Shown: positions 16,023 to 16,620 of the stretch, one piece after another
Layout of the letters: each line of letters starts with the position of its first letter
Position numbering within the stretch: the first letter of the stretch is position 1
Notes under the pieces: model-generated
The model's database searches: none
Told to the model about the DNA's origin: nothing
What the model saw: only the letters and a program-made list of their open reading frames with translations
Program-made: the position numbers and the translations under genes
Source: a virus
Taxonomy: Duplodnaviria; Heunggongvirae; Uroviricota; Caudoviricetes
Length of the DNA: 43,137 nucleotides
Strand: one strand, 5' to 3'
IMG/VR virus record: IMGVR_UViG_2541047960_000005

Positions 16023-16368
16023 TTCTACATCTTTGCAGTAAACAATAATCATAATTGCATGTTTTTTCTGTGGTGGGGCATTTGGCTTCTGTTGCCTGCG
16101 ATGTATTGTGGTGCTGGGATCAGCCTGTAGAAAATGCACACAGGTGTGAAGTGTTAAATTCCTCACAACTCAGAAAGCGGAATGTTGTCCTGTTAGCGGC
16201 GAATTTGTTAAAAGAGAACGGCATGGTGAATCCCCCTGAGCGGAGGGGCGACTGGTGATGGTATAATCTCTGATTATCAAAACGAGAATGACGCGGGTTC
16301 AGTGTCACCGGGCTGAACTCACCGGGAGGCACCCGGCACCATGCAATGGCACATAGCGCCACTCTCCA

Positions 16369-16392
16369 GCCCCTCTCCGGAGGGGCTTTCTT
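16369..16392 (+). terminator. intrinsic terminator-like hairpin
   Basis: GCCCCTC-TCCG-GAGGGGC followed by TTTCTT. Confidence 0.4.
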
Positions 16393-16620
16393 ATGGACAA
16401 AAAAAGCCCGCGCTGGGAGACGCGGGCGGCAAGGAATAAACAATAAAACGTGAAGTAATATTTCAGCTGACGAATAATACCCTATAGTAATCACTCTGCG
16501 CAACTGCGCGGTCTTTTTCGAATTGCGGGCTGTCGTCTCTCTTCTGCCATTGTCCTGTAACTTCCGGACTTCAGCCCGCTCCTTATTTTACTCACAATAT
16601 TATCCCGGCCGGGAGGATTC

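Follow-up and report, generated by a model that had tools for sequence, protein, structure and literature searches.

A known prophage small RNA gene, STnc100, lying tail-to-tail with a second known sRNA upstream of a nanS-like esterase gene

RESULTS

Genomic setting of the spacer

The window analysed here (the whole 43,137-nt stretch of DNA of the virus record IMGVR_UViG_2541047960_000005) shares 99.9% identity with prophages from human isolates of E. coli, e.g. CU37RT-2. The spacer under study is surrounded by the late region of a lambdoid prophage, in which the gene order is QuuD antiterminator, ompC-like porin (on the minus strand), methylase fragment, two tRNAs, lipoprotein, spacer, esterase, holin and lysozyme. 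The upstream moron encodes a 142-aa lipoprotein with a TolA C-terminal domain, and the downstream gene a 653-aa SASA/DUF1737/DUF6645 esterase (nanS-like). In CU37RT-2-type prophages, RefSeq annotates no RNA, nor anything else, within this spacer. The features that we assign to it are collected in Table 1.

Table 1. Features of the lipoprotein–nanS spacer, with positions in the window
Feature	Position	Strand	Remarks
Conserved upstream block, TGTTA-AATTCC-TCACA	16152–16167	+	Putative CRP-like site, or part of a putative upstream promoter/start region (longer isoform from ~16165)
Family-conserved sigma-70-type promoter	16185–16214	+	−35 TTGTCC 16185–16190; 18-nt spacer; TG 16206–16207; −10 TAAAAG 16209–16214
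Conserved structured 5' domain of STnc100-family RNA	16221–16344	+	Rfam alignment, MFE fold, covariance model R1 (113 bits)
P1, long-range helix	16221–16228 with 16337–16344	+	5 of 8 pairs with compensatory changes
P2	16233–16237 with 16244–16248	+	CCCCT/AGGGG hairpin of the earlier note
P3, variable hairpin	within 16252–16294	+	ATAATC (16263–16268) pairs with GATTAT (16272–16277)
Extended −10 of the earlier note, TGGTATAAT	16259–16267	+	Inside variable hairpin P3
P4	16295–16303 with 16312–16320	+	9 of 9 pairs with compensatory changes
P5	16322–16326 with 16332–16336	+	Almost invariant
Linker, candidate seed	16345–16367	+	Small hairpin UGGC/GCCA; 100% identical to Sakai Sp4
Intrinsic terminator	16368–16392	+	Stem 16368–16375 with 16380–16387, tail UUCUU; terminator scan, fold, Rfam model end
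Intrinsic terminator of convergent sRNA	16399–16427	−	Stem 16427–16421 with 16412–16406; U7 from A16405–16399
Minus-strand sRNA body and promoter candidates, EcOnc08/21 type	16428–16604	−	Antisense to nanS 5' leader
Short-form promoter candidate	16503–16474	−	−35 TTGCGC 16503–16498; 18-nt spacer; −10 TATTAT 16479–16474; start ~16468
Long-form promoter candidate	16627–16599	−	−35 ATGCCA 16627–16622; 17 nt; −10 GATAAT 16604–16599; promoter scan

The element on the plus strand has the location of an STnc100 gene: it shares the strand of the late operon and is preceded by the Q/moron genes and followed by the esterase and lysis genes. Moreover, a terminator scan places two opposed terminators, 16368–16392 (+) and 16427–16399 (−), only 6 nt apart, and this convergent arrangement is 95–100% identical, depending on the region, to that of prophage Sp4 of the Sakai strain. 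Convergent Hfq-bound sRNAs have been described in Sakai prophages Sp3, 4, 5, 9, 10, 11, 15 and 17, located in the gap that separates the moron CDS from the conserved ORF following it downstream of PR' (Tree et al. 2014; PMC4104026), and a later review refers to such pairs as dyads of Hfq-binding sRNAs (PMC7873438); they are known between the late promoter and the lysis genes of at least eight Sakai prophages (PMC4104026; PMC7873438). In the Stx2 phage Min27, the order is the end of stx2B (3455), STnc100 (3530–3735, +), AsxR (3737–3789, −) and a YjhS/NanS-like esterase ORF from 3942; the window shares this architecture of moron gene, STnc100, convergent minus-strand sRNA and nanS-like esterase. 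The family is found in 2513 of 5426 complete E. coli genomes (~46%), at up to 10 places per genome, and over the sRNA dyads RefSeq shows either nothing or a 'hypothetical protein'. A 127-aa ORF on the minus strand of the window (16120–16503), which spans the dyad, is most likely spurious.

Three further observations concern the same prophage. The ARAGORN call for 15154–15229 is tRNA-Met (CAT), whereas the RefSeq call for the identical gene is tRNA-Ile, of the ileZ type of Stx phages. In the early region, at 6563–6751 (+), isrK (61.6 bits) adjoins C4 antisense RNA (82.4 bits), an immunity RNA pair of the P1/P7 and Gifsy type. Additionally, a terminator-like hairpin with a T7 tract follows directly after the nanS stop codon, at 18584–18621 (−); this is where PasA sits in strain E2348/69 (the esterase–holin gap, opposite strand). 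A search for PasA between nanS and the holin gene gave neither an Rfam nor a BLAST match, and the 18584–18621 hairpin has no similarity to PasA.

Identity of the plus-strand element

An Rfam scan of the whole window found a full-length match to RF02076 (STnc100) at 16192–16398 on the plus strand, scoring 162.4 bits against a gathering score of 47 and extending over model positions 1–206 of 206 (E = 1e-36); a permissive Rfam scan of 15900–19300 found nothing else of note. The MFE fold of 16220–16394 gives back the Rfam STnc100 helices and the terminator, with z = −3.25 relative to shuffles. Taken with the full-length match, this fold puts the region far beyond chance. The element is, therefore, already known: STnc100 is a small regulatory RNA of lambda-like E. 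coli prophages, and here it lies tail-to-tail with a second known sRNA. In EHEC, the family is represented by EcOnc05 (prophage Sp4) and EcOnc27/sRNA103 (Stx2 phage), and it is related to PasD1 and PasD2 of EPEC. We conclude that the spacer between the lipoprotein gene and nanS is very probably an unannotated copy of this gene, together with the 3' end of its convergent partner.

An earlier note, made from the letters of the DNA, had placed an sRNA gene on the plus strand of this spacer and had pointed out that Stx prophages encode regulatory sRNAs in their late regions: the full-length STnc100 match confirms the gene, and the element belongs to these sRNAs. All four sequence features listed in the note are present where it put them. 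Among these is the GCCCCTC/GAGGGGC hairpin followed by TTTCTT at 16369–16392 (arms 16369–16375 and 16380–16386; TTTCTT 16387–16392), and its proposed role as the sRNA terminator agrees with the terminator scan, the fold and the end of the Rfam model. The description of the sRNA as a new candidate has to be given up, since it is a member of Rfam STnc100, i.e. EcOnc05/EcOnc27/sRNA103 in EHEC. As for the ~120-nt sRNA that the note envisaged, what stands is an sRNA ending at the 16368–16392 terminator; its size (homologues are published at 172–247 nt) and its promoter do not.

Structure and covariation of the 5' domain

Homologues were drawn from IMG/VR with the pattern GCATGGTGAATCCYCC, giving 87 distinct cores and 50 distinct 5' domains; a search of genome contigs with the same pattern returned, among the matches listed, only chance matches in unrelated phyla. 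We then described the 5' domain by a covariance model (R1), and searching all loci with it yielded 55 distinct copies. Among these copies, pairing extends to 95.5% of cells, and double-sided changes are seen in 18 of the 27 pairs, compared with 4.9 in shuffled data (none of 500 shuffles attains 18); in slid controls, the pairing falls to ~45%. Because the 55-copy alignment had been fitted to R1, the raw P1 arms were checked: copies outside the search-pattern selection have the compensated variants GCGUGGUG/CACCACGC, AUAUGGCG/CGCCAUAU and AUGUGAUG/CAUCACAU, and all 16 of the 16 one-sided P1 changes in the pattern-selected set are wobble-compatible. In divergent copies, P5 is kept as a hairpin with another loop (CCGG-GAAA-CCGG), and P1 is kept by compensation. 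The unpaired bases AAUC, GNGCGG and AGGCA of the 5' domain are fixed. The CCCCT/AGGGG hairpin that the earlier note saw upstream of its −10 is present at 16233–16237/16244–16248, but it has to be read differently, as helix P2, inside the RNA.

An alternative structure given by RNAalifold on the MAFFT alignment (GGUG with CACC of P5; UCCC with GGGA) was rejected, because its pairing, which shows no covariation, was driven by three misaligned PasD-type rows.

STnc100 units also occur on viral contigs in tandem arrays of 3–4 (L007 2265–3380, −; L019 811–1488), with further arrays at the viral loci L010, L020, L028, L041, L073, L076, L083 and L086. The arrays include a divergent middle copy (36 bits) in which P1 is fully compensated (AUGUGAUG/CAUCACAU). 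A degraded copy is found in prophage PP6 of E2348/69 (L003 1621–1797): it has no promoter and has lost the P1 5' arm (GTATAAGAG in place of GCATGGTG), and it adjoins an ISEc13 transposase. The sRNA converging on it from the minus strand is intact and has been detected by RIL-seq.

The exchangeable 3' module

The seed and terminator of the window copy (16345–16392) are identical at 48 of 48 positions to those of EcOnc05, the Sakai Sp4 copy. Elsewhere, family members exchange this 3' module and keep the 5' domain constant, which suggests a constant scaffold with variable targeting parts; in PasD1 and PasD2, the RIL-seq chimeras fall within the final ~50 nt of the RNA. Typical Hfq-dependent sRNAs have a longer U tract than the UUUCUU seen here. 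Short ORFs starting from the ATG within P1 (16341–16439 and 16346–16453) were considered and rejected, because the sequence downstream of P1 is the swapped module and the ORFs are not conserved.

Promoter and 5' end

The sigma-70-type promoter upstream of the 5' domain is conserved across the family: the arrangement TTGnnn, 17–19 nt, TA[AG][AG]A[AG], 5–7 nt, GCATGG is kept in 40 of 43 distinct upstream sequences even as the spacers differ, the spacer being 18 nt in 34 of these sequences and TGn preceding the −10 in 28. From its geometry, the window RNA is predicted to start at about G16221 and to be ~172 nt in length. In E2348/69, RNA-seq coverage and Northern size put the 5' end of PasD2 at exactly the base that this geometry predicts, and ChIP-exo has located RpoD at STnc100 promoters in Salmonella LT2 (PMC10794520). 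The compensatory changes that divergent copies show in helix 16221–16228/16337–16344 mean that the RNA must start at or before 16221.

A second conserved element lies further upstream. STnc100-type copies, including that in the window, have the extended block TGTTA-AATnCC-TCACA-ATTCAG, four variable bases and GTTGAC, whatever their left neighbour; the block is absent from PasD-type copies. The consensus for CRP is TGTGA-N6-TCACA, and −61.5 is a class I activation position. The window block matches this consensus at 9 of 10 bases and its centre lies 61.5 nt before G16221. At most two mismatches to TGTGA-N6-TCACA are found in 47 of 68 distinct upstream regions, in 38 of which the centre lies exactly 61 nt before GCATGG; the commonest left half of the block is TTTTA.

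The block may contain an upstream start site rather than a CRP site, and here the Northern sizes of the Sakai homologues, which are approximate and whose assignment of peaks to copies rests on old genome coordinates, are of relevance. For copies without the block, the bands exceed the promoter-to-terminator length by 8–14%: EcOnc13 (~187 nt against 173 nt predicted, ratio 1.08), EcOnc06 (~177 against 159 nt, 1.11) and EcOnc04 (~222 against 194 nt, 1.14). With the block, the excess is 33–42%: EcOnc05 (~222 nt against 156 nt predicted, 1.42) and EcOnc27 (~235/247 against 177 nt, 1.33–1.40). A start ~56 nt further upstream would give 213 nt for EcOnc05 and 234 nt for EcOnc27, and fits both block-bearing copies better. 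The sizes, therefore, point both ways, towards 16221 for copies without the block and towards the vicinity of 16165 for those with it, where, given the 33–42% excess, the upstream start is maybe the main one. By analogy, a start near 16165, giving an RNA of ~228 nt, may be at least as likely for the window as the ~172-nt form. Both candidate starts are upstream of the site proposed in the earlier note.

At 16161–16169 (cf. L002 2292–2300), the upstream block contains CCUCACAA, the motif that PasD targets have in common (CUCACA) and that complements the PasD seed UUGUGAG; pairing between RNAs of the STnc100 and PasD types would then be conceivable, provided that there is a long isoform. In a separate context, two variants downstream of stx2B have been reported as predictors of haemolytic uraemic syndrome (PMC12711010). 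These correspond to positions 3545 and 3558 of Min27 (L245; +90 and +103 after stx2B) and, by our own count, are situated in or just past the −10 region of the conserved STnc100 promoter, not in the seed.

The minus-strand partner

The earlier note had also reported a terminator-like hairpin in minus orientation at 16406–16427. It is present, followed by a T7 tract, and its role can now be specified: it terminates a second sRNA gene, which converges on the first. The 3' part of the minus-strand RNA, CACGUUUUAUUGUUUAUUCCUUGCCGCCCGCGUCUCCCAGCGCGGGCU7, matches the EPEC sRNA 'E2348C_1409.E2348C_1408.IGR', a homologue of EcOnc08/21/42. The terminator is identical to the Sakai Sp4 EcOnc08 locus at 37 of 38 positions, and terminator and body together are 95–97% identical to Sp4, whose minus strand is reported to give the Hfq-CRAC peaks EcOnc08 and EcOnc21 as well as a ~271-nt band in Northern blots.

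There are two promoter candidates for this RNA. The geometry of the short form is that found upstream of Min27 AsxR (TTGCGC, 18 nt, TAAAAT); the −35 of the long form overlaps the nanS start codon. The long form agrees better with the sizes of the homologues, estimated at 182 nt in EPEC and ~271 nt in Sakai, and it would be antisense to the whole nanS leader. The distal ~90 nt (16400–16490) form an exchangeable module; the remainder, up to the nanS start, is common to AsxR-type loci. The partner resembles AsxR and AgvB (RF02703/RF02702) in that it is tail-to-tail with an STnc100 copy, is antisense to the late operon and has its −35 TTGCGC in a hairpin common to them, with an 18-nt spacer to a −10 that is specific to the module. 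It differs from them in its 3' module, which is of the EcOnc08/21/42 type (CCUUGCCGCCCGCGUCUCCCAGCGCGGGCU7), and in that RNAs of this type are ~271 nt by Northern blot in Sakai, as opposed to 51–60 nt for the AsxR/AgvB type. Within 15900–19300, Rfam yields neither AsxR nor AgvB at E up to 1, and the ~42-nt 3' region conserved in their family was not found there; the spacer likewise gives no Rfam match to Esr41.

DISCUSSION

Comparison with characterized relatives

The window copy shares P1, P2, P4, P5 and the terminator with STnc100/EcOnc05/EcOnc27 and, like STnc100 copies, it follows a moron CDS on the late-operon strand, converges with a short minus-strand sRNA and precedes a nanS-like esterase gene. 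Its moron encodes a lipoprotein with a TolA C-terminal domain, as opposed to stx2AB or tRNAs, and there is no stx in this interval. The closest comparison is with Sakai Sp4, to which the whole spacer is 86% identical; the sole strong difference is in P3 (16252–16294), where 15 of 43 bases are identical and where the window, unlike Sp4, happens to contain TGGTATAAT. The Sp4 copy, EcOnc05, has an Hfq-CRAC peak and a Northern band of ~222 nt. EcOnc27, which is the same as sRNA103, is the copy of Sp5 (the Stx2 prophage), and its reported effects, on fimZ and espA, are known from over-expression only. In EDL933, 11 STnc100 copies are transcribed according to RNA-seq, one of which has been confirmed by Northern blot (PMC5331693).

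The resemblance to PasD1 and PasD2 of EPEC E2348/69, which are 172–173 nt in length and homologous to EcOnc13 of Sakai Sp3, is confined to the 5' domain within the RNA. Promoter geometry, P1 (GCAUGGUG), P2, P4 and the position before an esterase or holin gene are common to both, and R1 matches PasD2 at 50.6 bits; with the Rfam STnc100 model, the PasD2 locus stays below the gathering score. PasD, unlike the window, has neither P5 nor the upstream TCACA block, and its 3' module consists of the seed CCUUGUGAG and the terminator GGCUGCGCAUUGCGCAGCC followed by U8. This module was not found in the window, which has AAUGGCACAUAGCGCCACUCUCCAG and the CCCCUCUCCGGAGGGG terminator instead. A shared ancestor of PasD and STnc100 has been proposed (bioRxiv 10.64898/2026.05.13.724894).

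Alternative explanations

The earlier note derived its ~120-nt sRNA from a promoter at TGGTATAAT, from which the RNA would start ~7 nt downstream (near 16274) and run to the 16368–16392 terminator. The motif is indeed present at 16259–16267 and is a perfect TGnTATAAT; moreover, the 121-nt segment folds well alone (z = −4.12), and the sequence alone still allows a minor internal start. Its use as the sRNA promoter is, however, contradicted by its position within the RNA, in the stem of the variable hairpin P3, and by its poor conservation: among 50 distinct homologous domains, 49 lack it, TATAAT being present in 4 and TGnTATAAT in 1, that of the window's own lineage, whereas the nearest relatives have GACGGTATAAT, with no TG, at this position, and most copies have unrelated sequence there. 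An extended −10 alone is not above chance, as TGNTATAAT has one match in the window, 0.86 are expected from shuffles and 64 of 100 shuffles contain at least one. Furthermore, an RNA starting at ~16274 would be deprived of the P1 5' arm (16221–16228) and of all of P2, which are conserved and covary, and the sizes reported for homologues are 172, 173, ~177, ~187, ~222 and ~235/247 nt, none of them ~120 nt. We consider this shorter sRNA very unlikely and, in view of the P3 location, the 1-in-50 conservation, the loss of the P1 arm and P2, and the lack of a ~120-nt homologue, treat TGGTATAAT as most likely a chance match. Within a structured RNA, then, an extended −10 that looks perfect can be a product of chance.

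A different possibility is that P1–P5 constitute a cis-acting leader, an aptamer or protein-binding site controlling the 16368–16392 terminator in the manner of a riboswitch or attenuator, which, with transcription coming from the promoter of the element itself, would fix the basal level of nanS and lysis gene expression. The layout invites this reading: a P1-closed multi-helix junction with invariant unpaired bases precedes a terminator, all contexts examined place it upstream of nanS or holin on the same strand, and pairing is conceivable between GAGGGGC (P2, 3' arm) and GCCCCUC (terminator, 5' arm). PasD, Min27 and others, however, combine the same P2 with unrelated terminators; since terminator and linker modules are exchanged next to an unchanging 5' domain, a conserved antiterminator pairing does not exist. 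The occurrence of copies in tandem arrays of 3–4 units, the absence of a match to any Rfam riboswitch family even at E up to 1, and the nature of the homologues, which are discrete, abundant, Hfq-bound RNAs with trans partners in RIL-seq, likewise speak against a leader, and we regard it as highly improbable. The least probable explanation is that there is no RNA gene at all and that back-to-back terminators insulate the lipoprotein moron from nanS, the rest being mere spacer. The two opposed intrinsic terminators 6 nt apart, and the blank that RefSeq leaves here, would suit such an insulator; but the 124-nt domain upstream of the terminator is conserved and covaries across prophages with different flanking genes, the element has its own conserved promoter, and the homologues are detected as discrete RNAs, so that this explanation has hardly any probability.

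Proposed mode of action

Our preferred explanation, that the spacer carries an STnc100 sRNA gene, is based on family membership, structure with covariation, promoter conservation and shared architecture, all computed here; expression, Hfq binding and action in trans are attributed to the window RNA by analogy with its homologues. In the lysogen, the RNA's own promoter would be constitutively active and transcription would end before nanS, the RNA starting either at about G16221 (~172 nt) or ~56 nt earlier, near 16165 (~228 nt), and finishing at the 16368–16392 terminator. It has two parts: a conserved multi-helix 5' domain closed by P1, and an exchangeable single-stranded stretch with the terminator. 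Judging from the homologues, it probably associates with Hfq through the 3' module and base pairs in trans with host or prophage mRNAs. Once lytic growth sets in, neither terminator would stop the Q-modified polymerase.

Implications

In itself, the window copy adds little, being one more member of a family that is already in Rfam and has been described in EHEC, EPEC and Salmonella. There is a practical point, in that RefSeq leaves the sRNA dyads unannotated or covered by spurious 'hypothetical protein' calls. Moreover, the conserved 5' domain of the family, its true 5' end and its regulation are all amenable to experiment. A more far-reaching proposal, which we consider unlikely, is that the invariant 5' domain serves as a protein- or ligand-binding scaffold with exchangeable seed modules, and that the expression of the family is maybe tied to cAMP-CRP via the TGTTA-N6-TCACA block centred at −61.5. 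If this were true, these RNAs would not be ordinary Hfq sRNAs, but would form a modular 'handle plus programmable seed' system of lambdoid prophages.
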